DNA of 64,000 bases from assembly GCA_016193195.1 (NCBI GenBank), contig JACPSQ010000086.1:17299-81298 (forward strand). The letters are read 5' to 3'. The position numbers and the translations under genes are program-made. Numbering within the stretch: position 1 is the first letter of the stretch; each line of letters opens with the position of its first letter. Below, piece by piece: positions 6,001 through 59,341 of this stretch. Origin of the DNA: Candidatus Omnitrophota bacterium (lineage in GTDB: Bacteria; Omnitrophota; Gorgyraeia; Aquiviventales; Aquiviventaceae). The notes below the pieces were generated by a model. That model worked only from the letters and a program-made list of their open reading frames with translations, did not search any database and was not told the DNA's origin.

Positions 6001-6693
6001 ATGGAACTGAGCACCTACCGGGATATGCACCTCCTCGATGAGGTCACCCGGAATCCCACCGTGACCCAGCGAGAGCTCGCCAAGCGCATCGGGGTCGCCT
6101 TAGGCCTGGCCAACCTGATGCTGCGCCGCCTGACCAAGAAGGGCTACATCAAAATCAGCGGCACGAAGCGCAGCCGCATCCGCTACCTCATTACCCCGCA
6201 AGGCATCCTTGAGAAATCCCGCTTGACCTACGAGTTCGTCCAATATTCCCTCCAACTCTATCATCGCGTCCGCCATTTCTGGCGCGAGCAGCTGGCGACC
6301 ATCGCCCAAACCCCCCAGCGGCGGATCCTGCTCTTCGGCGCTGGCGAGCTGGCCGAGATCGCCTTCCTGACCATTCAGGAAATGGGCTTGGACTTCGTCG
6401 GCGTCGCCCAGGAGGCGGCCGATGAACGACGGTTTCTCGGCTATCCCGTTCAGGACATCCGCACGGTGGCACCGGACCGTTACGATTGGATGCTGGTCAC
6501 GGCCTTGCAGGACGACGGGTTGTCGACTCGCTTGCAGGAGCTGGGCGTGCCGCCGGAGCAGATGATCGTGTTGACCAGGCCAGGGCAGGCCAGGCCGGCC
6601 ATCGAGCGACGCAGCATCGAACAGATGGCCGTGGCCACCACGGCGCCCGTGCCGGTGCCGACGGCTCCCGTTGAAGCGGAGATCGCGGCATGA
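6001..6693 (+). CDS. Winged-helix transcriptional regulator with a C-terminal Rossmann-like domain
   Basis: The N-terminus TQRELAKRIGVALGLANLMLRRLTKKGYIK is an HTH. The C-terminal ILLFGAGELAEIAFL...DFVGV is a nucleotide-binding-like domain. It is the first gene of the plus-strand array. Confidence 0.55.
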   Translation: MELSTYRDMHLLDEVTRNPTVTQRELAKRIGVALGLANLMLRRLTKKGYIKISGTKRSRIRYLITPQGILEKSRLTYEFVQYSLQLYHRVRHFWREQLATIAQTPQRRILLFGAGELAEIAFLTIQEMGLDFVGVAQEAADERRFLGYPVQDIRTVAPDRYDWMLVTALQDDGLSTRLQELGVPPEQMIVLTRPGQARPAIERRSIEQMAVATTAPVPVPTAPVEAEIAA

Positions 6694-7256
6694 AACGCGC
6701 GGTGTTTCTGGATCGGGACGGCGTGCTCAATCAGGCGGTCGTGCGGGACGGCAAGCCATACGCGCCGGCCTCCCTGGAGGAGTTGGCGATCGTGCCCGAT
6801 GCCGCGGAGGCGATCACGACCTTGCGCCAGGCGGGGTTTCTCGCCATTGTCGTGACGAACCAACCCGATGTCGGCCGCGGCCTCCAACGCCGTGAGACGG
6901 TCGAAGCGATGCATCAGCGGCTCCGCGCGCAGCTGCCCATCGATGACATCCGGGTCTGTTATCACCGGGAGGAAGACGCCTGCGCGTGCCGGAAACCGAA
7001 ACCGGGGATGCTGCGCGACGCGGCCCGTGACTGGGATGTGGACCTGAGCCGCTCGATCATGGTGGGGGACCGGTGGCGGGACATCGAGGCGGGCAAAGCG
7101 GCCGGATGCCGCACGATTTTGGTGCGGAGCCCGTGGGCGGAGCAACAGGCCCAGGCTCCCGACGCGGTCGTGGCGTCCCTGCACGAAGCCAGCCGGCTGA
7201 TCCTGTCAGCGTGGATCAGCCGCCGACCCTACGGAGCAGCGCATGCCCAGGCTTGA
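6690..7256 (+). CDS. gmhB: D-glycero-D-manno-heptose 1,7-bisphosphate phosphatase-like HAD phosphatase (GmhB family)
   Basis: AVFLDRDGVLN (DxDGT motif I), VVTNQPDVGRG, and CYHREEDACACRKPKPGML (the GmhB zinc-binding cysteine loop plus KPxPGM). Confidence 0.8.
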   Translation: MKRAVFLDRDGVLNQAVVRDGKPYAPASLEELAIVPDAAEAITTLRQAGFLAIVVTNQPDVGRGLQRRETVEAMHQRLRAQLPIDDIRVCYHREEDACACRKPKPGMLRDAARDWDVDLSRSIMVGDRWRDIEAGKAAGCRTILVRSPWAEQQAQAPDAVVASLHEASRLILSAWISRRPYGAAHAQA

Positions 7257-8007
7257 GGAGTTACGGGTCAAGATCTTTGCGGACGGGGCGGACCTTGCGA
7301 CCATCGCGGAGCTCGCCAAGCATCCCTACATCAGGGGCTTCACAACCAACCCAACCCTGATGCGCAAGGCGGGTGTGCCGGACTACCGCCGGTTTGCTCG
7401 CGAGGTGCTGACGCTGGTGCCAGATCGCCCCGTGTCGTTTGAGGTCTTCTCGGATGATTTCCCCGAGATGGAACAGCAGGCGCTGGAGATCGCCTCGTGG
7501 GGCGACAATGTCTATGTCAAGATTCCGGTGACGAATACGCGCGGGGCGTTTTCCGGCCCGCTCATTAAGCGGCTCTCCGAAGCCGGCGTCAAGCTGAACG
7601 TGACCGCCCTGCTGACGAGCGAGCAGGTGGGCCGCGTCACCGACTGTTTCTCGCCGGGGAGGAGCAGCTTTATCTCGGTGTTCGCGGGACGGATCGCCGA
7701 CACCGGCCGCGACCCCGTGTCCCTCATGGCCGAGTCGCTGCGGCTGATGGCCAGCCGCCCACAGGCCGAGCTGATCTGGGCCAGCCCCCGCGAGCTGCTC
7801 AACGTGATCCAGGCTGACGCCATCGGCTGCCACATCATCACCGCCACCAGCGACATCTTGGCCAAGCTCTCCTTGATCGGGAAGGATCTGTCGGAACTCT
7901 CGTTGGACACGGTGCGGATGTTTCGGCAGGATGCGCTCCAGGCGGGTTTTACGATTGAGCTCAGCCAGGCCGAGGCGGTCGGCTCGGCGGCCGCCGCCCC
8001 GCGATGA
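7243..8007 (+). CDS. Transaldolase / fructose-6-phosphate aldolase family protein
   Basis: KIFADGADL...GFTTNPTL, VYVKIPVT, and the NVTALLT Schiff-base-lysine region are typical of TalC/FSA-type transaldolases. Confidence 0.75.
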   Translation: MPRLEELRVKIFADGADLATIAELAKHPYIRGFTTNPTLMRKAGVPDYRRFAREVLTLVPDRPVSFEVFSDDFPEMEQQALEIASWGDNVYVKIPVTNTRGAFSGPLIKRLSEAGVKLNVTALLTSEQVGRVTDCFSPGRSSFISVFAGRIADTGRDPVSLMAESLRLMASRPQAELIWASPRELLNVIQADAIGCHIITATSDILAKLSLIGKDLSELSLDTVRMFRQDALQAGFTIELSQAEAVGSAAAAPR

Positions 8008-9041
8008 AGCCGCCGTCTCCTCGACCGGTGCTGGTGACGGGCGGCGCCGGCTATGTCGGCTGCGTGCTCGTCCGAAAGCTGCTGGAGGCCGGCTACCCGG
8101 TGACCGTGTATGACCTGATGCTCTTCGGCGATGCGGGGTTGCCCACCCACGCCGCCCTGCGCGTCGTCAAGGGAGACATCCGCGATCTTCCGACGCTTGC
8201 CGCGGCGGTGCGGGGCGCGCACAGCGTGATTCATCTGGCCTGCATTTCCAACGACCCGAGTTTCGAATTGGATCCGGTGCTGGGCAAGTCGATCAACTAC
8301 GACAGCTTTGAGCCGTTGGTGCGGACCTGTAAAGCGGGTGGTGTGCGGCGATTTATCTATGCCTCCACCAGTTCGGTCTATGGGGTCAGCGACGCCCCGG
8401 ACGTCACCGAGGAACACCCCTTGGTGCCCTTGACGGATTACAATAAGTACAAGGGCTTGTGCGAGCCGATCCTCCTGCGCTACCAGTCGCCGGACTTTAC
8501 CACGGTGATCCTTCGGCCCGCCACGGTCTGCGGCCCTTCGCCGCGGATGCGCTTTGATCTGACCGTGAATATCCTCACCAACCATGCCGTGAATCGGCGT
8601 GTCATCACCGTCTTTGGCGGGACGCAGCGACGGCCGAACATCCATATCGAGGACATCGCCGAGCTCTACGTCAAGCTGCTGGAGTACCCGGACGGCTTGA
8701 TTGCCGGGGAGACCTTCAACGCTGGCTACCAGAATCACACCGTCGGCGAATTGGCTCACCTGGTCCGCCAGGTCGTCGAACAAGAGATGCCGCAGCCGGC
8801 ACCCATTCAGATCCAGACCAGCCCAACCGACGATCTCCGTTCCTACCATGTCTCATCCAGAAAAATCGCCGAGCGGCTTGGCTATGTTCCCGCGCGGACT
8901 ATTGAGGACGCCGTTCGCGATCTCTGTCGCGCCTTCACGGCAGGCAGGTTTCCCGACAGCCTGACCGATGAGCGGTACTTCAACGTGAAAGCGGTCAAGC
9001 GGATGACGCCCACCCTGCTCATGGAGCCGGTCGGCTCTTGA
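8004..9041 (+). CDS. NAD-dependent nucleotide-sugar epimerase/dehydratase (extended SDR)
   Basis: [15 protein letters not shown] Rossmann motif, with YASTSSVYG and YNKYKGLCE (YxxxK). Confidence 0.8.
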   Translation: MKPPSPRPVLVTGGAGYVGCVLVRKLLEAGYPVTVYDLMLFGDAGLPTHAALRVVKGDIRDLPTLAAAVRGAHSVIHLACISNDPSFELDPVLGKSINYDSFEPLVRTCKAGGVRRFIYASTSSVYGVSDAPDVTEEHPLVPLTDYNKYKGLCEPILLRYQSPDFTTVILRPATVCGPSPRMRFDLTVNILTNHAVNRRVITVFGGTQRRPNIHIEDIAELYVKLLEYPDGLIAGETFNAGYQNHTVGELAHLVRQVVEQEMPQPAPIQIQTSPTDDLRSYHVSSRKIAERLGYVPARTIEDAVRDLCRAFTAGRFPDSLTDERYFNVKAVKRMTPTLLMEPVGS

Positions 9042-10033
9042 TGCCGCAGCAGGTTGCAGTCGTGACTGGAGGGGCGGGGTTCATCGGCAGCCACATGGTG
9101 GACCTGCTGTTGGACCGCGGCTTCGACGTGCGAGCGATTGACAATCTTGCCTGCGGGCGTCGGGAAAACCTCGCGCACCAGAACGGCCACCCCCGCCCGG
9201 TGTTTGAGGCCCGGGATGTGCGGGACCTGCGTCCCGGCGACCCCTTGTTGGAGGGGGCCGACTATGTCTTCCATTTCGCGGGGATCGGAGACATCGTCCC
9301 GTCGATTGAGCGGCCGACCGAGTACCTGTCCTCCAATGTCATGGGCACGGTCTGCGCCCTCGAGGCGGCCCGGTGGGCGAAGGTGAAGAAGTTCATCTAT
9401 GCCGCCTCCTCCTCCTGCTACGGCCTGGCCACTGAGCTGCCGACCACGGAGCAGGCTCCCATCAGTCCTCAGTATCCCTACGCGCTGAGCAAGTACCTTG
9501 GCGAACAAGCCGTCATGCATTGGGGCAAGGTCTATCAGTTGCCGGTGATCTCCCTGCGCATCTTCAACGCCTATGGCCCGCGCTCGCGCACGACCGGCGC
9601 CTACGGCGCCGTCTTTGGAGTCTTCCTGGCGCAGAAGCTCGCCGGGAAGCCGTTCACGGTAGTAGGCGACGGAACGCAGCGTCGGGATTTCGTCTTTGTA
9701 ACCGATCTGGCAAAGGCGTTTCTACTCGCGGCTGAGTCCGATTGCACGCAAGACATCTTCAACGTCGGGGCTGGCCAGCCGCAGTCAGTGAATCGACTCG
9801 TGGAGCTGTTAGGCGGTGAAGTCGTCCATGTGCCCAAGCGCCCTGGAGAGCCGGATTGCACGTGGGCCGATACGACACGCATCCGGACAATGCTTGGATG
9901 GGTGCCGACGGTGTCGTTTGAAGCAGGCGTCAAGACCATGTTGGGCTCGATTGACGATTGGCGCGCCGCACCGGTGTGGGATGAGACGGCGATTGCAGAG
10001 GCAACGGCATCATGGTTCAAGTATCTGAAATAA
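9038..10033 (+). CDS. NAD-dependent nucleotide-sugar 4-epimerase-like (extended SDR)
   Basis: [23 protein letters not shown] and YALSKYLGE (YxxxK). The start overlaps the preceding stop (ATGA). Confidence 0.8.
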   Translation: MMPQQVAVVTGGAGFIGSHMVDLLLDRGFDVRAIDNLACGRRENLAHQNGHPRPVFEARDVRDLRPGDPLLEGADYVFHFAGIGDIVPSIERPTEYLSSNVMGTVCALEAARWAKVKKFIYAASSSCYGLATELPTTEQAPISPQYPYALSKYLGEQAVMHWGKVYQLPVISLRIFNAYGPRSRTTGAYGAVFGVFLAQKLAGKPFTVVGDGTQRRDFVFVTDLAKAFLLAAESDCTQDIFNVGAGQPQSVNRLVELLGGEVVHVPKRPGEPDCTWADTTRIRTMLGWVPTVSFEAGVKTMLGSIDDWRAAPVWDETAIAEATASWFKYLK

Positions 10034-11721
10034 CCGACGTCCGGTTGGAGAGTTCCCGCCCGGCTGTTGTCCTGGCGCTGCCGCTGAAGCGCGCGTTGGA
10101 GCGGTTGCTCCTGTGCAATCGGATCCGCGAGCTGGCGGACTACCGGATGACACCGGTGACGGTGAAGGATCTGCGCGGCATAGGAGGTCTCTTAGCATTC
10201 CTGGTTCGCGTGGTGGACCCATCCGGTATCCGGGCGCGTCGCTCCGGAGCGATTCAGCTTCTCATGGACGTCTGGATCATCATCACGCTCCGGCTGCTCC
10301 TGTTGTTCCGGAGGCATCGGATCGGGGAAGACCTGCGCTCGACCGTGGGTGTCCTCTGCCGAGCCGTGCTGTTCCGGCACCAGCGCTACGCGGCCCGTCC
10401 AACCACTGAGATGGTGCCGCACGTGCGGTGTTCCGAGAAGGAGGAGCTGTTGATCCGATCCTGCCTGTTGCTGCGCACCATGCAGCGGTACGGGCCATGC
10501 ATTGAATTCCTCATCCAGCGCCTCACCTCCGGGCTACCGGCTGCCGAGACGCGGCGATGGCTCGCCTTCTTCCTGCGTGAGATTGGGGATGACACCGCGG
10601 CTGACGCGTTGCTGACGATGGAGCCCGCGGCATCCGAAGCCACCGTCATCCACCACCTGGAAGTTCCAAAGCCTCCGGCGCAACATGCGCCGAGGCGACT
10701 CAAATACGGCCTGTACGTGATGACGGTGTTCGATTCGGACGTCTTCCGCAGCTCGCTGCTGAGCCTTATGAACAGTGATTACGACGGCCAGATCGTCGTG
10801 GCCGAAGACGGCTACCTTCCAAACAAGGTCTGCGAGGCATTTTGCCGGGAGGTCGGTGTTCCCTATATCAAGAACCCGGAGTGGACGTACACCCAGCCGT
10901 TGGCGAACCTGGCGATTCAGGCGTTTGATGAGGATACCGACATTCTGCTCCAGGCGCCGAACGACGTGCTCTGGCCCCCCCGCTGGTTTGGTCAACTTGA
11001 TGGGGCCTGGAAGCGGGTCTTTGACACTGGAAAGGTTGGTGGACTGACCATGAGTGCTGTGCAATTTGACGCCTCCGTGGAGCCTATGCTCAAAGAGGCG
11101 TTTGTGAGGGGGCGTTATGAAGGCCTGTTGTGGGTCTTAAAAATGCGGGCACAGGTTCACCCCTGGCTGGATTGGTATCGTGAAGCCCTGCCTCACGATG
11201 GGAGCCAGCTGTTTGGGTTGCCCAAGGATCTCTACACCGACGATGTGACCAGGCTCTTGTGGAAAGTTGCCTATGGAGGGGCGGTTTCGACCTTCTCCCG
11301 AACCCTCTGGACGGAAGTCAACAGGGTGCCATCACAGATGCGCGCCAATCTTGATCTGGAACTGGGCTACCAGTGTTGGACAAGCCGACGATGGTTCCTC
11401 GCCGTCAATAACACGCCTCTCATTCATATGATAGGACAGGATAGCCGTCGATTGACCGGCCGTGATAAGGTGCTTAAGGTGCGAGTGAAGGAAATGTTCA
11501 AGCAGGATGACGCGCTCTTCAGACAAAAGTACGGCGAGGACTGGTACCCACCCTATTGGTATTTTTCTGGCGAGAGCTGCATGATTTACCACGACGAGAT
11601 TCTGCGTGCGGTCAACGAGGGACGATTTGACGAGATCGACTTCGTGTTTGATGATTTCGAAGCCCGACGGAAGGGACGGTACTGGGCCTGTTCGCTCCCC
11701 TCGCTTTCACGCTCACAGTGA
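10012..11721 (+). CDS. Hypothetical protein (possible divergent GT-A-like domain)
   Basis: 569-aa ORF with no motif I can assign. The central YGLYVMTVFDSD...IVVAEDGY is faintly GT-A/DxD-like. The true start may be internal (ATG at 10147). Confidence 0.35.
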   Translation: MVQVSEITDVRLESSRPAVVLALPLKRALERLLLCNRIRELADYRMTPVTVKDLRGIGGLLAFLVRVVDPSGIRARRSGAIQLLMDVWIIITLRLLLLFRRHRIGEDLRSTVGVLCRAVLFRHQRYAARPTTEMVPHVRCSEKEELLIRSCLLLRTMQRYGPCIEFLIQRLTSGLPAAETRRWLAFFLREIGDDTAADALLTMEPAASEATVIHHLEVPKPPAQHAPRRLKYGLYVMTVFDSDVFRSSLLSLMNSDYDGQIVVAEDGYLPNKVCEAFCREVGVPYIKNPEWTYTQPLANLAIQAFDEDTDILLQAPNDVLWPPRWFGQLDGAWKRVFDTGKVGGLTMSAVQFDASVEPMLKEAFVRGRYEGLLWVLKMRAQVHPWLDWYREALPHDGSQLFGLPKDLYTDDVTRLLWKVAYGGAVSTFSRTLWTEVNRVPSQMRANLDLELGYQCWTSRRWFLAVNNTPLIHMIGQDSRRLTGRDKVLKVRVKEMFKQDDALFRQKYGEDWYPPYWYFSGESCMIYHDEILRAVNEGRFDEIDFVFDDFEARRKGRYWACSLPSLSRSQ

Positions 11722-11725
11722 ACCG

Positions 11726-13279
11726 ATGCCAGAGCTAACCACTGACGTGCGAACGAGCAGTCGTGAGCTCAAGTGTCTGGAGCTCGATCGATTGGCGGAG
11801 CATCTCGCACGCTTGCGAGGTGAGGGGAAGAAGATTGTCTTGTGTCACGGCGTATTCGACCTCCTCCACATCGGGCACGTTCGATATTTTCAACGCGCCA
11901 AGCAACTGGGTGACGTCCTGGTGGTGACGGTGACCCCCGATCGTTTTGTCAACAAAGGTCCCCAACGACCAGCCTTTTCTGAATCGCTGCGCATAGAAGC
12001 CCTTGCCGCACTGGAATGCGTCGACCATGTCGCCCTGAATCGGTGGCCGATGGCGGTGGAAACCATCCGCTTGCTGCAACCTCATGTCTATGTGAAGGGG
12101 CCGGATTACAAAGACCCTGACAACGATCACACAGGCGGGATTGTCCTTGAGGAGGCTGCTGTCAAATCCGTGAATGGACAGCTGGTGATTACCGATGACA
12201 TCACCTTCAGTGCTTCTCATCTGATCAATCGGCACCTGCCGTTGTTGTCCCAGGAAGCGACGCAGTTCCTTGAGCGTTTTTCATCCCGGTATACCTCAGC
12301 AGAGGTGCTTTGCTACCTGGAACAGGCACGTCCGCTGAAGGTCTTGGTTGTCGGAGAGGCCATCATCGACGAATATCAATACTGTGAATCTATTGGCAAA
12401 TCATCGAAGGAGCCAATGCTCGCCGTCAAGCGTCTTGCCATGGAACGGTTTGCCGGTGGGACCCTTGCGGTGGCCAACCACGTCGCGAACTTTTGCGATC
12501 AGCCGGGGCTCATCACCTTCCTTGGAGTGGATGATCCGAAGGAAACGTTCATTCGAGAGAAGCTGAATCCCAACGTCCAGCCGCGGTTTCTGTATCGGGC
12601 AGGCGCTCCCACGATTGTGAAACGCCGATTCATCGACCAGTATTTCTTTACGAAATTCCTGGAGGTGTATGAGATCAACGACGAGGCTTGGGACCCGCGT
12701 GATCATGACGTCTTGTGTGAGGAGTTGCGTACCCAAGTCCCGAACTACGATGTCGTGCTGGCCGTGGACTTTGGCCACGAGATGTTCAGTCGAGAGGCGA
12801 TTGATCTTGTCTGTGAGAAGGCAAAGTTCCTTGTCGTCAACACGCAGTGTAACGCTGGCAACCTCGGCTACCACTCCATCTCCAAGTATCCACGGGTGGA
12901 CTATGTCTGTCTGGCGGAGAGGGAGCTTCGGCTCGAGATGCGGGATCGTCGAGGGGATCTCAAGTCGTTGATTCAGCAGATTGCCCAGCGGCTTCGGTGT
13001 CCTGTGACGGCCACCCGCGGCGCCTATGGATGCCTCTCCTACAGTGAAAAGGATGGTTTTGTGGAGGTGCCGGCGTTCGCCAATCAGGTGGTGGACCGGA
13101 TGGGCGCCGGGGATACCTTTCTGTCGCTGGCGGCCCTGTGTGTCGCGGCGAAGGCGCCGCTTGAGATCGTCGGGTTCATCGGCAATGTCGCGGGAGCAGA
13201 AGCCGTCGCCACCGTGGGTCACCGCACGTCGATCGAGCGGGCGAGGTTCTTCAAGCACATTGAATCCTTACTCAAGTGA
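11726..13279 (+). CDS. Bifunctional heptose-1-P adenylyl(cytidylyl)transferase / PfkB sugar kinase with REVERSED HldE domain order
   Basis: N-terminal KKIVLCHGVFDLLHIGHVRYFQRAKQLGDVLVVTVTPD is the RfaE domain II (HxGH nucleotidyltransferase). The C-terminus carries the PfkB signature DRMGAGDTFLS. E. coli HldE has kinase first and transferase second. Confidence 0.75.
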   Translation: MPELTTDVRTSSRELKCLELDRLAEHLARLRGEGKKIVLCHGVFDLLHIGHVRYFQRAKQLGDVLVVTVTPDRFVNKGPQRPAFSESLRIEALAALECVDHVALNRWPMAVETIRLLQPHVYVKGPDYKDPDNDHTGGIVLEEAAVKSVNGQLVITDDITFSASHLINRHLPLLSQEATQFLERFSSRYTSAEVLCYLEQARPLKVLVVGEAIIDEYQYCESIGKSSKEPMLAVKRLAMERFAGGTLAVANHVANFCDQPGLITFLGVDDPKETFIREKLNPNVQPRFLYRAGAPTIVKRRFIDQYFFTKFLEVYEINDEAWDPRDHDVLCEELRTQVPNYDVVLAVDFGHEMFSREAIDLVCEKAKFLVVNTQCNAGNLGYHSISKYPRVDYVCLAERELRLEMRDRRGDLKSLIQQIAQRLRCPVTATRGAYGCLSYSEKDGFVEVPAFANQVVDRMGAGDTFLSLAALCVAAKAPLEIVGFIGNVAGAEAVATVGHRTSIERARFFKHIESLLK

Positions 13280-14265
13280 AGAGATACGGCATGACGCCGG
13301 AAGCCCAAAGGATGCGGTGGTTGTATTACAACCTGCTCAGGATTCGTATGGTGGAGGAGACTATTGCGCAACGTTATGCGCAGCAGGAGATGCGTTGCCC
13401 TATCCATCTGTGCATTGGTCAGGAAGCGATCGCGGTCGGAGTCTGCGCCCACCTGGCTCGCGAGGACTACGTGTTGAGCGGGCATCGTTCGCACGGGCAC
13501 TACCTGGCCAAGGGCGGCGATCTCAATGCCATGGTCGCAGAACTCTATGGCAAGGCAACGGGGTGCGCCGGAGGCCGCGGCGGTTCGATGCATTTGATAG
13601 ACCTCTCCGCTGGATTTTTGGGCGCAACCCCGATTGTGGCCGCCTCCATTCCGATCGCCGTGGGGGCGGCGTTAGGGTCGGTCATGCAAAAAGAGCCTCG
13701 AGTGACCGTGATCTTTTTCGGCGACGCAGCCCCGGAGGCCGGGGCGTGTCACGAGAGTCTGAATTTCGCGTTGCTCAAGCGCCTGCCAGTCGTCTTCGTG
13801 TGCGAAAATAACCTGTATTCCGTCTATTCGCCGATGTCGGTTCGTCAACCTGAAGGCAGACCGCTTGCCTCGCTCGCTGCTGGACATGGGATGGCCACGT
13901 ACCGGGGCGACGGCAATGATGTGTTCAGCGTCTCTGCCATCGCGCAGGAGGCCATCCGGCAGGTGAGGGATGGTGGGGGACCGATGTTTCTCGAGTTCAT
14001 GACCTACCGCTGGCGGGAGCACTGCGGCCCCTACTATGACAACGACCTCGGCTACCGAAGCGAGCAGGAATTTCAAGACTGGAAGCAGCGGTGCCCGGTT
14101 GCGCGGTGCCGAGAACGCCTCCTCCGTGAAGGCATCCTCACTAGCCAGGATCACGAAGAGATCGTTCGGACGTTGGAACGCGAGATTGACGCGGCGTTTC
14201 GTTTCGCCAAGGAAAGCCTTTTTCCTGAAGCTCAGGAACTCTTGGAGCACGTGTACGCGCCATGA
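13276..14265 (+). CDS. ThDP-dependent dehydrogenase E1 component, alpha subunit
   Basis: CPIHLCIGQEA...GHRSHGHYLAKG...GGRGGSMH are E1-alpha ThDP-binding motifs. Start is either GTG 13276 or ATG 13291. Confidence 0.8.
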   Translation: MKRYGMTPEAQRMRWLYYNLLRIRMVEETIAQRYAQQEMRCPIHLCIGQEAIAVGVCAHLAREDYVLSGHRSHGHYLAKGGDLNAMVAELYGKATGCAGGRGGSMHLIDLSAGFLGATPIVAASIPIAVGAALGSVMQKEPRVTVIFFGDAAPEAGACHESLNFALLKRLPVVFVCENNLYSVYSPMSVRQPEGRPLASLAAGHGMATYRGDGNDVFSVSAIAQEAIRQVRDGGGPMFLEFMTYRWREHCGPYYDNDLGYRSEQEFQDWKQRCPVARCRERLLREGILTSQDHEEIVRTLEREIDAAFRFAKESLFPEAQELLEHVYAP

Positions 14266-15323
14266 TGAGAGAACTGAAGTTCTACGAAGCGATTCGCGAG
14301 GCGCTCGACCTGTGTCTGGCCAAGGACCCGCGAGTCTACCTGATGGGGCTCGGCGTGCCGGATCCAAAGGGCATCTTTGGGAGCACCCTTGGGCTCCAGC
14401 AACGATACGGCTCATGGCGGGTGATGGATATGCCTACCTCAGAAAACGGGATGACGGGAATTGCCATCGGCTCAGCCCTCAACGGGATGAGGCCGGTGTT
14501 AAGCCACCAGCGTGTGGATTTCTCATTGTTGGCGATGGAGCAGATGGTCAACCAAGCCGCCAAGTGGCGGTACATGTTTGGCGGCAGGCACAGCGTCCCA
14601 GTGGTCATCCGCATGATCATCGGACGCGGATGGGGACAGGGACCACAACACTCCCAGAGCCTTCAGGCGTGGTTCGCCCACATTCCTGGTTTGAAGGTGG
14701 TCATGCCGACCACCCCCTATGACGTGAAAGGTCTCCTCATTTCGAGCATTGAAGATGATAACCCCGTCATCGTGTTGGAGCATCGGTGGCTCTACACCAT
14801 CGTGGGGGAGGTTCCTGAGGGGCTCTACCGTGTGCCGTTAGGGCAAGCCAAGGTGGTACGGGGGGGTCAGGATCTGACGATCGTCGCAACGTCCTACATG
14901 GTGCTCGAAGCGCTTCGGGCCGCGGAACTCTTGGCTGAGCAGGGGATTGCGGCAGAGGTCATCGACGTGCGAAGCCTCAGACCATTGGATGGTCGGGCTA
15001 TTCTCGAGTCGGTGTGCAAGACAGGGCACCTGATCGTTGCAGATGCGGCTTGGACAACCTGCGGGTTCGCGGCGGAGATCGTGGCCTTGGTCTGCGAGCA
15101 TGCGTTCGAGCATCTCAAGCGTCCTCCTCGTCGGGTGACGCTGCCGGACTGTCCTTGTCCGAGCAGCGCGGCATTAGCCAATGACTACTATCCACGGTCC
15201 GTTCATATCGTCGCGGAGGCAAACGCGTTATTAGGGGTGTCCGGCAAGCCGGGTCTGGCTTCGGAGGCGGTATCCTCGGTGCCGCTGGATGTGCCCGATT
15301 TGAACTTCACGGGACCGTTCTGA
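14262..15323 (+). CDS. ThDP-dependent dehydrogenase E1 component, beta subunit (transketolase-like)
   Basis: MGLGVPDPKGIFGSTLGLQQRYG...SENGMTGIAIGSAL is the pyrimidine-binding domain, followed by a C-terminal transketolase_C-like domain. The start is ATGA-coupled to the alpha subunit. Confidence 0.8.
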   Translation: MMRELKFYEAIREALDLCLAKDPRVYLMGLGVPDPKGIFGSTLGLQQRYGSWRVMDMPTSENGMTGIAIGSALNGMRPVLSHQRVDFSLLAMEQMVNQAAKWRYMFGGRHSVPVVIRMIIGRGWGQGPQHSQSLQAWFAHIPGLKVVMPTTPYDVKGLLISSIEDDNPVIVLEHRWLYTIVGEVPEGLYRVPLGQAKVVRGGQDLTIVATSYMVLEALRAAELLAEQGIAAEVIDVRSLRPLDGRAILESVCKTGHLIVADAAWTTCGFAAEIVALVCEHAFEHLKRPPRRVTLPDCPCPSSAALANDYYPRSVHIVAEANALLGVSGKPGLASEAVSSVPLDVPDLNFTGPF

Positions 15324-17480: not shown

Positions 17481-18310
17481 AGGATCTCGACCGTCACTTT
17501 GTTGGTCAGGTCGTGGCTGTGACAGGTGGTGCGCGGGGCATCGGGAGGCGGATTGCCCACGCGTTTGGACAGGAAGGGGCCGCGGTGGTCCTCTGCGACA
17601 TCGATCAGCGGACCGGCGAGGCGGCGAAGGCTGAACTCCGCGACCGGGGTGCGACGGCGGAGTTCCTCCCGACCGATTTAAGTCAGCGCGGTGTGCCTCA
17701 AACGATGGTTCGTCAGATCGTCCAACAATTCGGACGGCTGGATATCTTGATCAATAACGCCCGGTGGACCGTGAAAGCCGGCTTGTTTGAGGAGGATGAG
17801 GAGAGTTGGGAACGCGGGATGGCGGTTTCCCTGCGGGCTCCGTTCTTTGCCGCTCAAGAGGCGATCCGCATGATGGAGAAGACGGGCGGGGGGAGCATTG
17901 TGAATATCAGTTCGGTCTTGGCGTTTGTGACGACCCCATCGGCCTCGGTCTCCTATCATGTGGCCAAAGCCGGACTGGTGCAACTGACGCGGTATCTGGC
18001 GGCCTCTGCCGGAAGGGTGGGGGTTCGGGTCAACGCCATCCTGCCCGGATTCATCGTACAACAGGAGCATTGGGATCGGTATACACAAGACGAGAACCAT
18101 CGCTATCGAGACCTCGCTGAATTTTGCCACCCCCTGCGGCATGTCGGCGGCTCTGACGATGTGGCGCACGCCTGCCTGTTTCTGTGTTCGCCGGAGGCCT
18201 CATTTATCACCGGTCAGTGCCTCATTGTTGACGGAGGATTGACGACGCAGGAACCGTTTGACTTACTGTTCGCGTTCGACCAGCAACGGGGGGAGGCGCC
18301 CTCGTCATGA
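17477..18310 (+). CDS. Short-chain dehydrogenase/reductase (classical SDR)
   Basis: VAVTGGARGIGRRIA, NNA, and YHVAKAGLV (YxxxK). Confidence 0.8.
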   Translation: MKDLDRHFVGQVVAVTGGARGIGRRIAHAFGQEGAAVVLCDIDQRTGEAAKAELRDRGATAEFLPTDLSQRGVPQTMVRQIVQQFGRLDILINNARWTVKAGLFEEDEESWERGMAVSLRAPFFAAQEAIRMMEKTGGGSIVNISSVLAFVTTPSASVSYHVAKAGLVQLTRYLAASAGRVGVRVNAILPGFIVQQEHWDRYTQDENHRYRDLAEFCHPLRHVGGSDDVAHACLFLCSPEASFITGQCLIVDGGLTTQEPFDLLFAFDQQRGEAPSS

Positions 18311-20346
18311 GATCCGTGATCTATTTGGCCGATTTGACGCATACCGGCCCCGTCATCTCTTCGAACGTCCATCCGCTGGCGGCCGGCTTGGTGGGCGCGT
18401 ATGTGGTGGAGCGTTGTCCTAACAGGATCGAGGTCGAGCTGTTCAAGTATCCGCAGGATCTCTCGGCCGCGATGGCACGCCGACGCCCGCGGCTAGTTGG
18501 ATTTTCGAATTATTCCTGGACCTGCAACCTCTCGTACGAGTATGCGCGGCAGATCAAACACGCCTATCCTGAGATCGTGATTGTTTTCGGGGGACCGAAT
18601 TATGGCTTGAGAGAGCAAGAAATGCTGGCCTTTTGGCAGCGGTACCCCCTGATCGACTTCTATCTCGTGAAGGAAGGGGAGCTGCCGATGGTCGAACTGC
18701 TGCACGGCCTTGAGGACTGCGGGTATGACCCCGCGGCGTTGAAGCGCTCCGGCAGATCCCTCCCGAACTGCCACTATCAGTGGCAGGGGACACTGGTGAC
18801 CGGTGAGATCCTCCCCCGCCTCACTGAGCTCGAGCAACTCCCTTCGCCCTACCTCATGGGCCTGATGGACAAATTCTTTGACGGGGTCCTCTCCCCGATG
18901 ATTCACACCACGCGCGGCTGTCCGTTTACCTGCACCTTCTGCAGTGAGGGGGCGACGTATTACAACAAGGTCGCGCAACGTGTCGGCATCGCCGAGGAGC
19001 TCGACTACATTGCCCAGCGGGTGGGCAGCGTGCCTGACCTCTACCTGACGGACGCCAATTTCGGGATGTATCAGCAGGATCGTGAAAAAGCCAAGATCAT
19101 CAGCTCGATTCAGCAGCGATACGGTTGGCCGAAGCGGCTCGTCGTCTCAACAGGGAAGAACCAGAAGGAGCGCGTCATCGAGGTGGCCTCGATGCTCAAT
19201 GGGTCCCTGAACGTGGCCGCGTCCCTCCAATCCACCGACCCCACCGTCCTGCAGAATATTCAACGAGCCAACATCTCCTTGGACGCGCTCAACGTCATGG
19301 CGAAGCAGACCACCGAGACGGGCGCCGATACCTACACCGAACTCATCTTGGGTCTTCCGGGAGACTCCAAACAGGCCCACACCAAATCGTTGCGAGACGT
19401 GGTCGAAGCGGATTTGGGAATCGTGCGGATGTACCAACTGATTATGCTTCCGCAGACCGAGCTGAACACCCCTGAGACCCGCCAGCGGTATGCCATGAAG
19501 ACCAGGTTTCGGATCATGCCTCGATCCTTTGGACGCTACGACCTCCTGGGCAAGGCGATCCTTGCGGTGGAGTCCGAAGAAATCTGTGTGGAGAACAGCA
19601 CCCTGACGTTTGAGGACTACCTCGAGTGTCGGGAGCTGAACCTGACCGTCGAGATCCTCCATAACGGCAGAGTCTTCGTCGAGCTGCAGGGGTTGTGTAA
19701 GTGGCTGGGCTGCTCATGGTTTGATTTCCTCTTGCGCGTGCATCAGCAGCGACGATCCTCCCACGAGGCCCTGAGGCGGTTCTACGAGACCTTCCGTGAG
19801 GAAACCACCAAGCGGTTGTGGGCGACACGAGAGGAGCTGGAGGGGTACGTCAGTCAACACCTTGACGAGCTGCTGGGTCATGAGGAAAGCACCAATGAGA
19901 TGGCGACGTCGAAAGCGATCGCCTTTTTCCAATTGCAGGGGACGCTGCATGACGTTTTGTTTGAGGAGATGACCGCACTCCTCAACGAACGAGGGTGTCT
20001 TGATGAGGTGATGGGAGTGTACATCAGGGAATTGAGAGACTACAGTCAATGTCGAAAGGCCCGGCTGACCGAAGGGCGCGAATACCATGGGAGGTTCCAT
20101 TTTGACTTCCCTGGAATCGGGGAGCATCACTACGCGGTGGACCCTCGGGACTATTTCCTCGAGGGGAGGACTGTTGAGCTGCGGTTCTGTCACAGCGCCA
20201 GGCAGCGCGAGATGATCCAGGGATATCTCCGACAGTATGGCAACACCCTTGACGGGATGGGGAGAATCTTGATGCGTGTCTGGCCGACCACACGTCTCTT
20301 CCGAGAAGTCCTCTGCCAGGAAGAGCACGCGCTGGCAGCCGCGTGA
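18307..20346 (+). CDS. Cobalamin-binding radical SAM enzyme (class B; likely methyltransferase)
   Basis: An N-terminal B12-binding-like region (VGFSNYSW...IVIVFGGPN), then TTRGCPFTCTFCSEG, which is CxxxCxxC. Confidence 0.8.
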   Translation: MRSVIYLADLTHTGPVISSNVHPLAAGLVGAYVVERCPNRIEVELFKYPQDLSAAMARRRPRLVGFSNYSWTCNLSYEYARQIKHAYPEIVIVFGGPNYGLREQEMLAFWQRYPLIDFYLVKEGELPMVELLHGLEDCGYDPAALKRSGRSLPNCHYQWQGTLVTGEILPRLTELEQLPSPYLMGLMDKFFDGVLSPMIHTTRGCPFTCTFCSEGATYYNKVAQRVGIAEELDYIAQRVGSVPDLYLTDANFGMYQQDREKAKIISSIQQRYGWPKRLVVSTGKNQKERVIEVASMLNGSLNVAASLQSTDPTVLQNIQRANISLDALNVMAKQTTETGADTYTELILGLPGDSKQAHTKSLRDVVEADLGIVRMYQLIMLPQTELNTPETRQRYAMKTRFRIMPRSFGRYDLLGKAILAVESEEICVENSTLTFEDYLECRELNLTVEILHNGRVFVELQGLCKWLGCSWFDFLLRVHQQRRSSHEALRRFYETFREETTKRLWATREELEGYVSQHLDELLGHEESTNEMATSKAIAFFQLQGTLHDVLFEEMTALLNERGCLDEVMGVYIRELRDYSQCRKARLTEGREYHGRFHFDFPGIGEHHYAVDPRDYFLEGRTVELRFCHSARQREMIQGYLRQYGNTLDGMGRILMRVWPTTRLFREVLCQEEHALAAA

Positions 20347-21152
20347 GGCCGTGCGGGACGATGGAAGGACGCGTGGCCCTCGTCACCGGGAGCAGCAAAG
20401 GAATCGGCAGGGCCATTGCCCGATCGCTCGCCCGGGGAGGAGCGAAGGTCGTCGTGACGGCGCGGGGCCCTGAGGCACTGGAGCAGGCGGCTCAGGAAGC
20501 CAACGGCTACGGCGGGAACGTGCTGCCGATTGCCGCGGACGCGACAGACCCGAACGCGGTCCGAGCCGTCGTCGAGTCGGCGGTGCGGCACTTCGGTGGG
20601 CTGGACATCTTGGTCAATAACGTGGGAGGCGCCAACCGCATTGCCGAGTTCGCGGAGTTGACGAAGGAGGACTGGATCCACACCTTTGAGCTCAACGTCA
20701 TGACGGTGGTGTACTTTGTCCAAGCGGCCCTTCCCTGGCTCCGAAAATCAGCAGGCGGTCGCATCATCAACATGGCCTCCATTACGGGCGTCGAACCCAG
20801 CCAGCTCGCTCCACACTATGCGGCGAGCAAAGCCGCCATCATTAATCTGAGTAAACATCTCGCGAACCTGTGCGCTCCCAATGGCATCCTCGTCAATGTG
20901 GTCTGTCCCGGTCAGGTGAGCTCCGAGGCCAGGCAGGGGTTGGCCGACTATGTGGCACGGACGCACAACATCCCCCTGGCGGACGCGCGCGTCCGCATCG
21001 ACGCGGAGGGAGCGTCAAGGATTCCTCTTGGCCGACTCGGTGTATGCGAAGACGTGGCTGAACTCGTGTCGTTTCTTGCTTCAGAGAAGGCCGGCTGGAT
21101 CACCGGAGAGTGCTTTCATGTGGACGGAGGAAAACACCGCTCAGCATTCTGA
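20343..21152 (+). CDS. Short-chain dehydrogenase/reductase
   Basis: VALVTGSSKGIGRAIA, NNVG, and YAASKAAII (YxxxK). Confidence 0.8.
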   Translation: MRPCGTMEGRVALVTGSSKGIGRAIARSLARGGAKVVVTARGPEALEQAAQEANGYGGNVLPIAADATDPNAVRAVVESAVRHFGGLDILVNNVGGANRIAEFAELTKEDWIHTFELNVMTVVYFVQAALPWLRKSAGGRIINMASITGVEPSQLAPHYAASKAAIINLSKHLANLCAPNGILVNVVCPGQVSSEARQGLADYVARTHNIPLADARVRIDAEGASRIPLGRLGVCEDVAELVSFLASEKAGWITGECFHVDGGKHRSAF

Positions 21153-22389
21153 GCGGGAGGATCACGTGGAACAGGTGAGCATCGAATCTATCACCCAGCG
21201 GGCGCAGCGCTGCGGCGTCTGCGGGGAGAGACCTGAGGCGGTCCTCGATCTGCCAGGCCTTCCTCTCACAGGTCTCTACGCAAAGGCGTTCAACAACGAG
21301 TCTGTGGCAGGGATCGATCAGCACTTGGCCGTCTGCCCCTCCTGCGGTCACGGGCAACTGGTCTATCAGGTGCGTCCCTCGCTGCTCTACGGCGAGAGCT
21401 ACAGCTTTCGAACCTCGGTGAGCGACACCGCGAAGCAAGGCACCGGCTTTTTTCTCTCGAAACTACGCGAGCTCAGCGCTGACAGGAGCTTTCATCGTGT
21501 CCTGGACGTAGGGTGTAACGATCTCCATCTCCTCCGGCAGCTTGATGGATGGGTGGAGTCACGGGTGGGGATCGATCCGGTATGGAATGCCGATGAGAAG
21601 CGCCAGGCCCAGCCGGATGAACGAGACGCTCGCATCAACGTCATCGGGGCAACAGTGGAGGAGGTCGACCTGCCTCAGGCCTTGGAGGCCCCACCCGATC
21701 TGGTGCTGTGTCGGCACACGCTGGAGCATATCGGGGACCCGCGCGCTGCGCTCTCAAAGTTGTTCGAGGCCTCCACGGAGGATGCCCTTTTTCTCTTCGA
21801 GGTACCTGGCTTCGAGGCCCTCGTCCGCCGGTTGCGATTCGATCACGTGTTCCATCAGCACGTGCAGTATTTTTCACTAAGCTCGTTCCAGAGGCTGCTG
21901 GGGGAGGTCGGCTTCCACTACCGGGCCCATTGGGTGAACTATCACGAGTGGGGAGCCCTGGTGATGGCATTTGTGAAACAGCGTGGAGGGGGACTGCGCC
22001 AGGCCGACGAGGCACCACCCGCGGTGACTCCGGCGTCAGTCCAGGCGGCCTACGAACTCTTCAGACGGCAGATGGCTTCGACGAATGAGGTACTCAGCAC
22101 GTTTGAAGGCACCCGTGTCTACGGCTACGGCGCGGCGGCCATGTTGCCAATCTTAGCCTACCACCTTGGCAACGACCTCTCGCTGCTGACCGCGGTCCTG
22201 GACGATGATCCGACAAAGGATGGGCTGCACTATGGGAACCTGCCGTTGACGATCCGGTCGCCGTCTGGGGTAGCGGATCTCGAGGGCGCCTCGATCTTCC
22301 TGACGGCGCTAGACAACGTGAAGCCCATCCTCACCAAGTTGTTGGCGAGGCGTCCCAAGCACATCATCTATCCACTCCATCTGATCTGA
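21118..22389 (+). CDS. Sugar C-methyltransferase, TylCIII/NovU-like (Zn-ribbon + SAM MTase + C-terminal domain)
   Basis: An N-terminal Cys4 cluster (CGVCG...CPSCGHG), then VLDVGCNDL (SAM motif I) and a long C-terminal domain. This architecture matches NDP-hexose 3-C-methyltransferases. Alternative GTG start at 21166. Confidence 0.65.
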   Translation: MWTEENTAQHSEREDHVEQVSIESITQRAQRCGVCGERPEAVLDLPGLPLTGLYAKAFNNESVAGIDQHLAVCPSCGHGQLVYQVRPSLLYGESYSFRTSVSDTAKQGTGFFLSKLRELSADRSFHRVLDVGCNDLHLLRQLDGWVESRVGIDPVWNADEKRQAQPDERDARINVIGATVEEVDLPQALEAPPDLVLCRHTLEHIGDPRAALSKLFEASTEDALFLFEVPGFEALVRRLRFDHVFHQHVQYFSLSSFQRLLGEVGFHYRAHWVNYHEWGALVMAFVKQRGGGLRQADEAPPAVTPASVQAAYELFRRQMASTNEVLSTFEGTRVYGYGAAAMLPILAYHLGNDLSLLTAVLDDDPTKDGLHYGNLPLTIRSPSGVADLEGASIFLTALDNVKPILTKLLARRPKHIIYPLHLI

Positions 22390-22390
22390 T

Positions 22391-23173
22391 ATGGACCTTG
22401 GCATTCGTGGACGACGGGCATTAGTGACAGGCGCGGGACGCGGCATCGGCCGCTCAATCGCCCTGTGCCTCGCCCGGGAAGGGGTGCGGGTGGTGGTCGT
22501 CTCGCGCCGTGCGAGGGATCTGAACACGCTCGTCGAGGACATGGGGGGAGCCCAGGCAGGGCATCTGAGCGTGCCGTTGGATTTGATGTCGACCGGAGCG
22601 CCCACGAGGTTGATGAAACGGTTGAAGGCGTTGGACGTTAGTCCCATTGACATCGTGATTCATAATCTTGGCGGTACCTTAGAGATCAGCGATCCGTTCT
22701 GCCCCGTCTCGGACTGGCGGAAGGTGTGGCGTTTCAACCTTGAGGTGGCCATCGACTTGAATGTGCGATTGCTCCCCTCGATGCGGCGGCGGCGGTGGGG
22801 ACGGGTGGTGCATATCTCGTCGATTGCCTCCATGGAGAATCACGGGCCGGTGACGTACTGCGCCGTCAAGGCGGCCCTCACCGCCTACGCGAGAAGTTTA
22901 GGTCGTGTGCTGGCCTCTGAAGGGGTGGTCGTGACCGCGGTGCTCCCTGGAGCGATTTTCACCAAAGGCGGCTACTGGGATCTGGCGGCTCAAACGCGTC
23001 CTGATCACGTGAAGCAATACCTGCAAGAGCGCATGGCGAGTCACCGCTTTGGGCAGCCGGACGAAATCGGCAGCGCGGTGGCCTTTCTGTGCTCAGAGCA
23101 GGCGTCCTTCTTCATCGGCTCGATCGTCCCCATCGATGGCGGGCAGGGACGGGGGTATTTCGGGCAGTCATGA
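22391..23173 (+). CDS. Short-chain dehydrogenase/reductase
   Basis: ALVTGAGRGIGRSIA and YCAVKAALTAY. Confidence 0.75.
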   Translation: MDLGIRGRRALVTGAGRGIGRSIALCLAREGVRVVVVSRRARDLNTLVEDMGGAQAGHLSVPLDLMSTGAPTRLMKRLKALDVSPIDIVIHNLGGTLEISDPFCPVSDWRKVWRFNLEVAIDLNVRLLPSMRRRRWGRVVHISSIASMENHGPVTYCAVKAALTAYARSLGRVLASEGVVVTAVLPGAIFTKGGYWDLAAQTRPDHVKQYLQERMASHRFGQPDEIGSAVAFLCSEQASFFIGSIVPIDGGQGRGYFGQS

Positions 23174-23955
23174 TGACGATGATGAATAACGACTTGCGCC
23201 GGAAAATCATCGACGTGGTCTACCGAGGAAAGGATGGGCACATCCCGAGCGCCTTCTCCATCGTGGATATCGTGGCGCTGTTGTATCGCGAATACCTGAA
23301 GGTGGATCCTCGCCATCCTCAGGATCCGAATCGAGATTACTTCATCTTGAGCAAAGGCCACGGGTGCGTTGCGCTCTATGTTGTGCTGGCGGAGCGCGGC
23401 TTCCTCAGCCAGCGCGATCTCGACGCCTTCTGCACGTCAGGCGGTATCCTCGGAGAGCATCCCGACTGCACGAAGGTGCCGGGGGTTGAAGCCTCAACCG
23501 GTTCGCTCGGCCACGGTTTCCCATTTACCGTGGGTCTGGCATTGGGTCTTCGAATCCTCGGCATGACCAACCGGATCTTCGTCCTCGTCGGTGATGGGGA
23601 GTGCCACGAAGGGACGGTGTGGGAAGCGGCCAATGTGGCGAATAATCTTCAGCTTGGCAACCTGTGTGTGATCGTGGATTGGAATGGATCCGCCGCCCAG
23701 CTCATGCCGCGGGACGATCTGCCGGCCAAATGGAGGGCCTTTGGGTGGAAGACCCAGGTCGTTGACGGGCACTCCGCGCCGGAGTTAGGGGCAGCCTTCG
23801 ACCGTATCGTGTTCCAGCCCGCGGGCACGCCGACGGTGGTCATCGCCAGGACGGTGAAGGGCAAGGGGGTCCCCATGCTCGAAGGTCACGGCGTGTGGCA
23901 CCACCGCATTCCGACCGCGGAAGAACACCAACAGATGCGAGAGGTATTGGCCTGA
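23170..23955 (+). CDS. Transketolase, N-terminal (ThDP/PP-binding) subunit
   Basis: GHIPSAFSIVDIVALLY...ILSKGHG...GSLGHGFPFTVGLAL...VLVGDGECHEG are the transketolase ThDP-binding motifs. ATGA-coupled to the upstream gene. Confidence 0.8.
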   Translation: MMTMMNNDLRRKIIDVVYRGKDGHIPSAFSIVDIVALLYREYLKVDPRHPQDPNRDYFILSKGHGCVALYVVLAERGFLSQRDLDAFCTSGGILGEHPDCTKVPGVEASTGSLGHGFPFTVGLALGLRILGMTNRIFVLVGDGECHEGTVWEAANVANNLQLGNLCVIVDWNGSAAQLMPRDDLPAKWRAFGWKTQVVDGHSAPELGAAFDRIVFQPAGTPTVVIARTVKGKGVPMLEGHGVWHHRIPTAEEHQQMREVLA

Positions 23956-30311: not shown

Positions 30312-30312
30312 C

Positions 30313-42204: not shown

Positions 42205-42217
42205 GGGGGTGGACGTC

Positions 42218-47218: not shown

Positions 47219-47228
47219 GCGGCGGACG

Positions 47229-51697: not shown

Positions 51698-51713
51698 AAG
51701 GAGGCAGGCGCGG

Positions 51714-52914: not shown

Positions 52915-52917
52915 GCC

Positions 52918-59180: not shown

Positions 59181-59204
59181 CAGGCTGCGGAAATACTCGG
59201 CTCA

Positions 59205-59313: not shown

Positions 59314-59341
59314 CAGCACCCTGCTAGACTAACACCGTGCG

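Follow-up and report, generated by a model that had tools for sequence, protein, structure and literature searches.

A transaldolase coupled to a GmhB-like phosphatase belongs to a conserved cassette predicted to make a nucleotide-activated C7 or C8 sugar for surface glycans

In the lincosamide octose pathway, LmbR is assigned as transaldolase, LmbN as isomerase, LmbP as kinase, LmbK as phosphatase, LmbO as nucleotidyltransferase and LmbS as aminotransferase (PMC4351081, PMC7014725, PMC12945683), with LmbM as epimerase, LmbL as dehydrogenase and LmbZ as NAD(P) oxidoreductase (PMC4351081, PMC12945683). The genes are compact and form an lmbRSOPZNML sub-cluster with lmbK (PMC4351081, PMC7014725, PMC12945683). 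The nucleoside diphosphate (NDP)-heptose pathways run through GmhA, HldE and GmhB to ADP-heptose, or through GmhA, HddA, GmhB and HddC to GDP-heptose. To our knowledge, the heptose clusters described so far carry no transaldolase. Here we describe a transaldolase gene that overlaps the gene of a GmhB-like HAD phosphatase at positions 6690-8007 of a 64,000-nucleotide stretch of Candidatus Omnitrophota DNA (contig JACPSQ010000086.1; the window hereafter), which is a long plus-strand glycan locus. Sequence comparison identifies this transaldolase as the predicted pathway-dedicated entry enzyme of a conserved cassette making a putative nucleotide-activated C7 or C8 sugar for a surface glycan. Our literature searches found no described link between a transaldolase and gmhA or gmhB and no octose-containing glycan; so far as these searches show, the cassette is an undescribed variant of the heptose/octose nucleotide-sugar scheme.

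The two genes of the pair are as follows.

6690-7256, plus strand: GmhB-like HAD-IIIA sugar-bisphosphate phosphatase (LmbK/GmhB class), 188 aa; TIGR01656 145 bits, NF006506 140 bits.
7243-8007, plus strand: transaldolase of the TIGR02134 type, cassette clade, 254 aa; 340 bits against a cut-off of 281.95.

The transaldolase corresponds to NCBI entry MBI3011636.1, named 'transaldolase' there and encoded on an 82 kb contig of a Candidatus Omnitrophota metagenome-assembled genome (MAG). An earlier note, made from the DNA alone, had proposed that it is translationally coupled to a GmhB-type gene, and the coordinates bear this out: the two genes overlap by 14 nt, a GGAG motif at 7233-7236 lies 6 nt 5' of the transaldolase ATG, and an ATGA at 8004-8007 joins the transaldolase stop to the start of the next gene, SDR1. 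A further ATGA overlap links the HAD gene to the MarR/EPS-type regulator before it (6001-6693), and the transaldolase start codon is supported by homologues that align from residue 1. The phosphatase has the GmhB-type CxH...CxC loop, and its closest structures are those of GmhB (3l8h and 4pnh); its best NCBIfam matches are TIGR01656 and the GmhB model NF006506, and the 140 bits reached with the latter lie under its cut-off of 178.

The second gene had been described as belonging to a transaldolase/FSA family, with grouping among housekeeping TalC/FSA enzymes, in an organism lacking any other transaldolase, named as the outcome that would speak against a special role, and here only the first half of the name stands. 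The protein matches Pfam TAL_FSA (PF00923) with an E value of 6.5e-40 (137.7 bits against 27) and passes TIGR02134, but reaches only 84 bits with the FSA/TalC model TIGR00875, whose cut-off is 245.95. Among solved structures, small transaldolases from Thermotoga (1vpx, E 9e-21) and from Thermoplasma come nearest. We take the active-site residues of the T. acidophilum enzyme to be Asp6, Asn28, Glu60, Lys86, Asn108, Thr110, Phe132, Arg135, Ser167 and Arg169; the window protein has D14, N36, E67, K93, N119, T121, F147, R150, S181 and R183, and each of the ten is conserved in at least 86 of the 87 cassette-type sequences. The transaldolase-signature positions are occupied by Lys K93, Glu E67 and Phe F147, whereas E. 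coli FsaA has Gln and Tyr instead of Glu and Phe. By its sequence, the enzyme is a true transaldolase, not FSA/TalC.

In the protein database, the transaldolase has thousands of homologues at about 70% identity, from many phyla. A genome scan with one genome per GTDB species yielded 80 loci, 60-72% identical and spread over more than 15 phyla, including Acidobacteriota, Planctomycetota, Chloroflexota, Nitrospirota, Elusimicrobia, Omnitrophota, Bipolaricaulota, Cyanobacteria, Firmicutes, Spirochaetes and several proteobacterial classes. The proteins of the window and of one relative were mapped onto these loci, 72 of which had enough flanking sequence. The HAD gene lies immediately 5' of the transaldolase gene in 55 of the 72 independent species loci, a recurrence beyond chance. 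The order SIS-HAD-TAL (TAL, transaldolase) was found in 51 of 72, and a kinase and a nucleotidyltransferase lie within 10 kb of the transaldolase in 65 of all 80. HAD-TAL is the most constant unit, with a second HAD in some loci (L048, L076), and the SIS-HAD-TAL triad behaves as a movable module because it is found inverted as a unit. The genes also occur fused, as HAD-TAL (P0090, P0123, P0127, P0141, P0143), TAL-SIS (P0132) and SIS-TAL (P0134). When loci were ascertained via other cassette genes, the transaldolase was present in both of those found via a GHMP kinase and in 11 of 19 found via a dehydrogenase homologue with at least 7.5 kb of upstream sequence.

The loci fall into two types. 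Type A, to which the window belongs, reads SIS-HAD-TAL-SDR1-SDR2-NTK-GFO-dehydrogenase homologue-EPI3, where NTK is a nucleotidyltransferase-kinase, GFO a Gfo/Idh/MocA oxidoreductase and EPI3 an RmlD/epimerase-family SDR; type B reads SDR-dehydrogenase homologue-SDR-GFO-GHMP kinase-NTP_transferase-SIS-HAD-TAL, and its nine genes span 4838-12717 in L173. Activation differs between them, being assigned to a nucleotidyltransferase-PfkB protein in type A and to a GHMP kinase plus NTP_transferase in type B, whereas SIS-HAD-TAL, GFO and a dehydrogenase homologue without its catalytic Cys are common to both. Complete type B cassettes lie on a Rhizobium jaguaris chromid and a Lawsonia intracellularis plasmid, both cultured carriers. 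Two type B cassettes are preceded by a methyltransferase, a GtrA-family protein and a large unannotated protein (L179, 3200-5333, where a GT2 glycosyltransferase is also present; L180, 3717-4871), and these upstream genes follow the logic of periplasmic polyprenyl-phosphate-linked glycosylation. The type B GHMP kinase (L173, 9190-10173) is at least 89% identical across its best 120 protein clusters (P0395-P0514), which include several Rhizobium species and one Burkholderiales MAG, and is therefore either unusually conserved or recently spread by horizontal transfer.

A neighbour-joining tree, built without bootstrap, placed the cassette transaldolases in one clade, inside which types A and B are mostly separate and the window protein sits with type A. 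Cassette members are 54-72% identical to the window transaldolase, against 48-50% for stand-alone members. The latter, from Lactobacillus, Treponema, Staphylococcus and Streptomyces, fall outside the clade, and their genes are isolated or have a catabolic setting: that of Lactobacillus crispatus is found between a LacI regulator and a phosphotransferase system operon, and those of Treponema saccharophilum and Staphylococcus aureus stand alone. These results bear on one alternative, an ordinary housekeeping pentose-phosphate transaldolase that merely happens to be located in a glycan locus. The match to TIGR02134, the NCBI name and the lack of a second transaldolase in the 64 kb window would suit it. 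Against it stand the translational coupling on both sides of the gene, the SIS-HAD-TAL synteny in more than 15 phyla together with the fusions, the absence of pentose-phosphate genes near the transaldolase in those loci whose genes were called, and a clade separate from that of the stand-alone relatives; the gene lies in a glycan operon in the window and in the 80 species loci. Because of the conserved linkage, the fusions, the separate clade and the presence in loci ascertained via other cassette genes, we consider a housekeeping role very unlikely. The remark in the earlier note that a housekeeping transaldolase is not expected inside a glycan operon was thus well placed, as coupling, synteny, fusions and clade all mark a pathway gene.

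Two other groups of family members were noted in passing. On a plasmid of Streptomyces sp. 3211 (L090, 10676-13427), a 50% identical member lies between a D-arabinono-1,4-lactone oxidase and the HAD phosphatase HxpB, and this different transaldolase-phosphatase pairing adjoins an MFS transporter. P0163 and P0224 are family transaldolases with an N-terminal extension of about 190 aa that resembles a GIY-YIG homing-endonuclease domain, and may be of phage origin.

The dehydrogenase homologue of the window (31242-32543) matches UDP-glucose dehydrogenases of the PDB with an E value of 2e-46, and it carries GGNLERD instead of GGSCFPKD. The catalytic Cys is replaced in every cassette, by Asn in type A (GGNLERD) and by Thr in type B (GGTLARD), whereas canonical dehydrogenase paralogues in the same loci keep it (GGSCFPKD or GGHCIP); further copies of the Cys-less homologue were found at 5754-7109 of L173 and 11782-13086 of L091. 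In type A it directly adjoins GFO, and in type B an SDR gene lies between the two. Without this nucleophile the homologue is not expected to carry out the four-electron oxidation that yields a uronic acid, and a WbpA/WbpB-type uronic-acid route for GFO and the dehydrogenase was rejected for the cassette copies. In lincosamide biosynthesis, LmbL and LmbZ jointly perform a 6,8-dehydration that requires a three-carbon side chain. Candidates for the LmbM, LmbL and LmbZ classes are present in the cassette as GalE-like SDRs, the Cys-less homologue and GFO, respectively, a correspondence at the level of enzyme class.

The earlier note had also drawn a parallel with the lincosamide pathway as a whole. 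Transaldolase, SIS isomerase, anomeric kinase, GmhB-like phosphatase and nucleotidyltransferase are contiguous in relatives, and because these carry the whole set together, the parallel has a firmer basis than could be seen from the window by itself. The window itself has all five octose-pathway classes, its SIS gene being 39 kb off and of another subtype. The match of these five classes stands, and the octose product remains a prediction. LmbR, LmbK, LmbL, LmbM and CcbZ had no entries among the PDB structure matches, no lincosamide producer appeared among the best 120 matches of a search seeded with an actinobacterial family member, and the plasmid collection held only an unrelated Streptomyces copy of the transaldolase family.

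From the enzyme families, catalytic residues, synteny, fusions and Cys loss observed in these loci, a route can be proposed. The transaldolase would transfer a dihydroxyacetone unit from fructose 6-phosphate (or sedoheptulose 7-phosphate) to ribose 5-phosphate, giving octulose 8-phosphate, which the SIS isomerase would convert to octose 8-phosphate. The PfkB kinase half of the nucleotidyltransferase-kinase would phosphorylate C1, the GmhB-like HAD would remove the terminal phosphate, and the nucleotidyltransferase half would form the NDP-octose. Epimerisation of the NDP-octose could be carried out by the two GalE-like SDRs and an LmbZ/LmbL-type 6,8-dehydration by the Gfo/Idh/MocA enzyme with the Cys-less dehydrogenase homologue, after which an RmlD-like reductase (or a DegT aminotransferase) would finish an 8-deoxy (or 6-amino-6,8-dideoxy) octose. 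The thiamine diphosphate (ThDP) enzymes, methyltransferases and radical SAM enzymes of the locus may decorate the product further. We infer the ribose 5-phosphate acceptor, the order of the kinase, phosphatase and nucleotidyltransferase steps, and all of the tailoring chemistry. Octulose 8-phosphate, unlike sedoheptulose 7-phosphate, would need a dedicated transaldolase, and we favour this octose route over a dedicated supply of sedoheptulose 7-phosphate, while giving it close to, but somewhat short of, an even chance. A broader proposal, that the cassette spread over more than 15 phyla makes NDP-aldo-octoses for surface glycans via octulose 8-phosphate and 6,8-dehydration and represents a primary-metabolism ancestor of the lincosamide sugar pathway, is offered more tentatively still.

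In order to relate the cassette to heptose biosynthesis, the profile score of each enzyme was compared with the curated NCBIfam equivalog cut-off, and none reached the level of the canonical NDP-heptose pathway. The HAD proteins score 131-140 bits (cut-off for GmhB, 178), the cassette SIS 43-49 bits (GmhA, 209), the type B GHMP kinase 174 bits (HddA, 600), the type B nucleotidyltransferase 89 bits (HddC, 300) and the NTK domains 93-102 bits (HldE domains, 181-345). The window SIS reaches 61-64 bits with GmhA models that have cut-offs of 209-320. The two NTK proteins of the window, NTK_A and NTK_B, had been called HldE-like; they do combine a nucleotidyltransferase with a PfkB kinase domain, but in this order, which is the reverse of HldE, and far under the HldE cut-offs (for NTK_A, rfaE domain II 102 bits against 181.5 and domain I 93 bits against 345). 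The cassette-type SIS forms a distinct subfamily (8841-9461 of L009, 8825-9469 of L081 and 67 other loci). Relative to GmhA, in which Glu65 and His180 are taken as the catalytic residues after the E. coli enzyme, it has Asp for Glu65, keeps His180, shows a five-residue deletion around Arg69 and carries a lengthened phosphate loop, SVGGG plus six residues in place of ISTSGNS. The window SIS (46628-47218) instead has Asp at 65, His180 replaced by Asp and an ISSSGQS phosphate loop; it is 42% identical to the NTK_A-linked SIS of L004 and of the same non-cassette subtype. To judge from these comparisons, the cassette proteins resemble heptose enzymes and are not orthologous to them.

A heptose remains a substantial, if rather doubtful, alternative to the octose. 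In this case the transaldolase would provide a dedicated supply of sedoheptulose 7-phosphate from fructose 6-phosphate and erythrose 4-phosphate for ADP/CDP- or GDP-heptose, which the SDR, GFO and dehydrogenase-like enzymes would then modify. The reaction is the one canonical for transaldolases, it yields the substrate of GmhA, and heptoses are common in bacterial glycans; the Omnitrophota MAG host may, in addition, have a reduced central metabolism. Several further observations favour it. A specificity signature was sought between cassette and stand-alone transaldolases, and all first-shell residues were identical, so that the active site gives no hint of altered acceptor specificity. The best named matches of SIS, HAD, GHMP kinase and NTK are GmhA, GmhB, HddA and HldE (for the type B nucleotidyltransferase, MurU comes first and HddC fourth), and the type B kinase is annotated by JGI as a heptose-7-phosphate kinase. 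Enzymes of precursor supply do occur inside glycan clusters, as the ManA/ManB duplicates of O-antigen clusters show, and can be fused to enzymes of the pathway, as in PMI-GMP. Other points weigh against the octose. TIGR02134 was presumably built on transaldolases of Staphylococcus and Coxiella that are themselves presumed to serve housekeeping (pentose-phosphate) functions. Eight of the 19 loci ascertained via the dehydrogenase homologue have no transaldolase within about 10 kb, and the 64 kb window has no cassette-type SIS. The assignment of LmbL to the UGDH family and of LmbZ to Gfo/Idh/MocA is our presumption. We know of no report of aldo-octoses made in this way in surface glycans. Erwiniose ('octose') and caryophyllose (a decose) are ThDP-dependent acyl-branched hexoses (PMC9306805) and were rejected as precedents for transaldolase-built glycan sugars.

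Other features of the cassette speak for the octose over the heptose. Sedoheptulose 7-phosphate is already supplied by transketolase, yet the transaldolase is kept in Rhizobium and Burkholderiales carriers that have a full pentose-phosphate pathway. All four heptose-type enzymes lie far under their equivalog cut-offs, the phosphate loop of the cassette SIS is remodelled, and GFO with the Cys-less dehydrogenase homologue would have no evident role on the two-carbon side chain of a heptose.

A dedicated transaldolase with another acceptor or role was considered as well: hexose 6-phosphate or arabinose 5-phosphate could lead to a C9 or an epimeric C8 ketose, or TAL-HAD could release a free ketose that is re-activated. 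Transaldolases take a range of aldose phosphates, HAD-TAL is the most constant unit with a second HAD in L048 and L076, and on the Streptomyces plasmid the partner of the family member is another HAD, HxpB. We judge this improbable, as it has no known precedent, the TAL-SIS fusions imply that the ketose phosphate passes straight to isomerisation, and the kinase and nucleotidyltransferase content suits the heptose/octose scheme.

Within the window the type A cassette is split into two parts, 6690-10033 and 28755-33454, with about 19 kb of tailoring genes between them. The remaining features considered are listed below.

6001-6693, plus strand: MarR/EPS-type winged-helix regulator; HTH_24 and MarR matches, TIGR04176 68 bits, under the cut-off of 88.
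8004-9041, plus strand: SDR1, NAD-dependent epimerase-like, STSSVYG ... YNKYK; Pfam Epimerase 1.3e-36.
9038-10033, plus strand: SDR2, GalE-like 4-epimerase homologue, candidate LmbM class; Pfam Epimerase 4.7e-58.
10012-11721: 569-aa protein between SDR2 and NTK_A, no Pfam or NCBIfam match.
11726-13279, plus strand (start refined): NTK_A, cytidylyltransferase-like domain then PfkB kinase; PF01467 plus PF00294.
28755-30311, plus strand: NTK_B, cassette-type nucleotidyltransferase-kinase; PF01467 plus PF00294.
30313-31245, plus strand: GFO, Gfo/Idh/MocA oxidoreductase, candidate LmbZ class; Pfam matches.
31242-32543, plus strand: nucleotide-sugar-dehydrogenase homologue without catalytic Cys, candidate LmbL class; three UDPG_MGDP_dh domains.
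32537-33454, plus strand: EPI3, RmlD/epimerase-family SDR; Pfam Epimerase and RmlD_sub_bind.
42113-43438, plus strand: DegT-family aminotransferase; PF01041 1e-55.
46628-47218, plus strand: SIS-domain isomerase, GmhA-like but divergent, the only SIS gene of the window; SIS_2 3e-12.

The regulator occupies the slot that the SIS gene has in relatives, and a 39% homologue lies farther upstream in L009. Syntenic homologues of SDR1 (56-76%) follow the transaldolase in type A loci, and those of SDR2, whose best PDB matches are UDP-hexose 4-epimerases, are 64-76% identical. NTK_B, GFO, the dehydrogenase homologue and EPI3 make up a tight block (28755-33454). NTK_B has 58-74% homologues directly after SDR2 in type A loci; GFO follows it in every type A locus and starts in the window 1 nt past its stop. 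EPI3, which ends the cassette and keeps its place behind the dehydrogenase homologue across type A loci, is probably a keto-reductase, as judged by family. NTK_A is a second activation enzyme, 30% identical to NTK_B, with a 61% homologue that adjoins a SIS gene in L004; the 569-aa protein also has a homologue there (36%), which shows a weak GT2 signal. The DegT aminotransferase is a possible LmbS-class partner by family, a weak link, and DegT genes come after EPI3 in L009. The earlier note had grouped a SIS isomerase and HldE-like enzymes with the pair; a SIS isomerase is indeed present, but 39 kb downstream and not of the subtype that usually precedes HAD-TAL, and the gene set extends over 40 kb.

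After NTK_A come E1 alpha/beta genes, a 4,6-dehydratase-like SDR, a zinc alcohol dehydrogenase and further SDRs, then two B12 radical SAM enzymes, a C-methyltransferase, a split transketolase, an RmlD-like SDR and the NTK_B block. E1 alpha/beta and two split transketolase pairs lie at 13276-15323, 23089-24917 and 33458-35223, and six relatives (L004, L007, L030, L044, L060, L084) have E1 alpha/beta or a split transketolase at the same post-cassette position; this speaks for a sugar nucleotide that is branched or extended (C2) by ThDP-dependent enzymes, not for pentose-phosphate metabolism. Cluster-encoded split transketolases were considered as a private source of sedoheptulose 7-phosphate and judged unlikely, as they occur in 6 of 80 loci and alternate with E1 alpha/beta. 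Three B12-binding radical SAM enzymes (18307-20346, 25381-27207, 52918-54522), one SPASM radical SAM enzyme (39736-41019) and a Methyltransf_13/14 C-methyltransferase (20950-22389) suggest heavy C-methylation of the sugars. A nonulosonic-acid sub-cluster of legionaminic/pseudaminic-like type occupies 46628-61413 and comprises the SIS gene, a GFO, a CMP-transferase, an SDR, NeuB, an MptE-like protein, a B12 radical SAM enzyme, a NeuC-like 2-epimerase, a PglD-like acetyltransferase, a HisF/HisH-like pair, a 410-aa unknown protein and a CBS-NTP_transferase (PtmE-like).

If the octose route is correct, a class of sugar so far known from the lincosamide antibiotics alone would prove to be a common component of bacterial envelopes, and this would account for the origin of the lincomycin sugar pathway. 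Should a heptose be made instead, the cassette would still be an undescribed form of the heptose pathway, with a transaldolase start and remodelled enzymes including the Cys-less dehydrogenase homologue. Current pipelines label the genes as 'transaldolase', 'galactokinase' or 'heptose kinase', and the cassette is available in cultured carriers, R. jaguaris CCGE525 and the pig pathogen L. intracellularis.

The transaldolase shares the class I aldolase TIM-barrel signature and the catalytic residues of the small decameric transaldolases (T. maritima 1VPX, T. acidophilum 3S0C), but unlike the Staphylococcus-type transaldolase of TIGR02134, the cassette members form their own clade and lie in glycan operons or are fused to HAD or SIS. 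The dehydrogenase homologue has the three-domain architecture and the Lys/Asn/Asp residues of UDP-glucose and GDP-mannose 6-dehydrogenases, and differs from them in lacking the nucleophilic Cys and with it the GGxCxxKD motif. With both NDP-heptose pathways the cassette shares the same four activities and folds; it departs from them in scores that fall well below (GmhB) to far below the equivalog cut-offs, in the reversed HldE domain order, in the altered SIS and in its link to a transaldolase, which the described heptose clusters do not have.

The lincosamide GDP-octose pathway is matched at the level of enzyme class, with candidates for the LmbM, LmbL and LmbZ classes. Its genes overlap tightly, as the cassette genes do, and type B cassettes also match the types of LmbP and LmbO (GHMP kinase plus NTP_transferase). 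In contrast, nucleotidyltransferase and PfkB kinase are fused in the window version, the fusion probably yielding a beta-linked ADP/CDP sugar, and a reductase often takes the place of the aminotransferase. The lincosamide genes, finally, form an antibiotic cluster, whereas the cassette resides, in more than 15 phyla, in loci for surface glycans that also hold glycosyltransferases, GtrA and ABC transporters.

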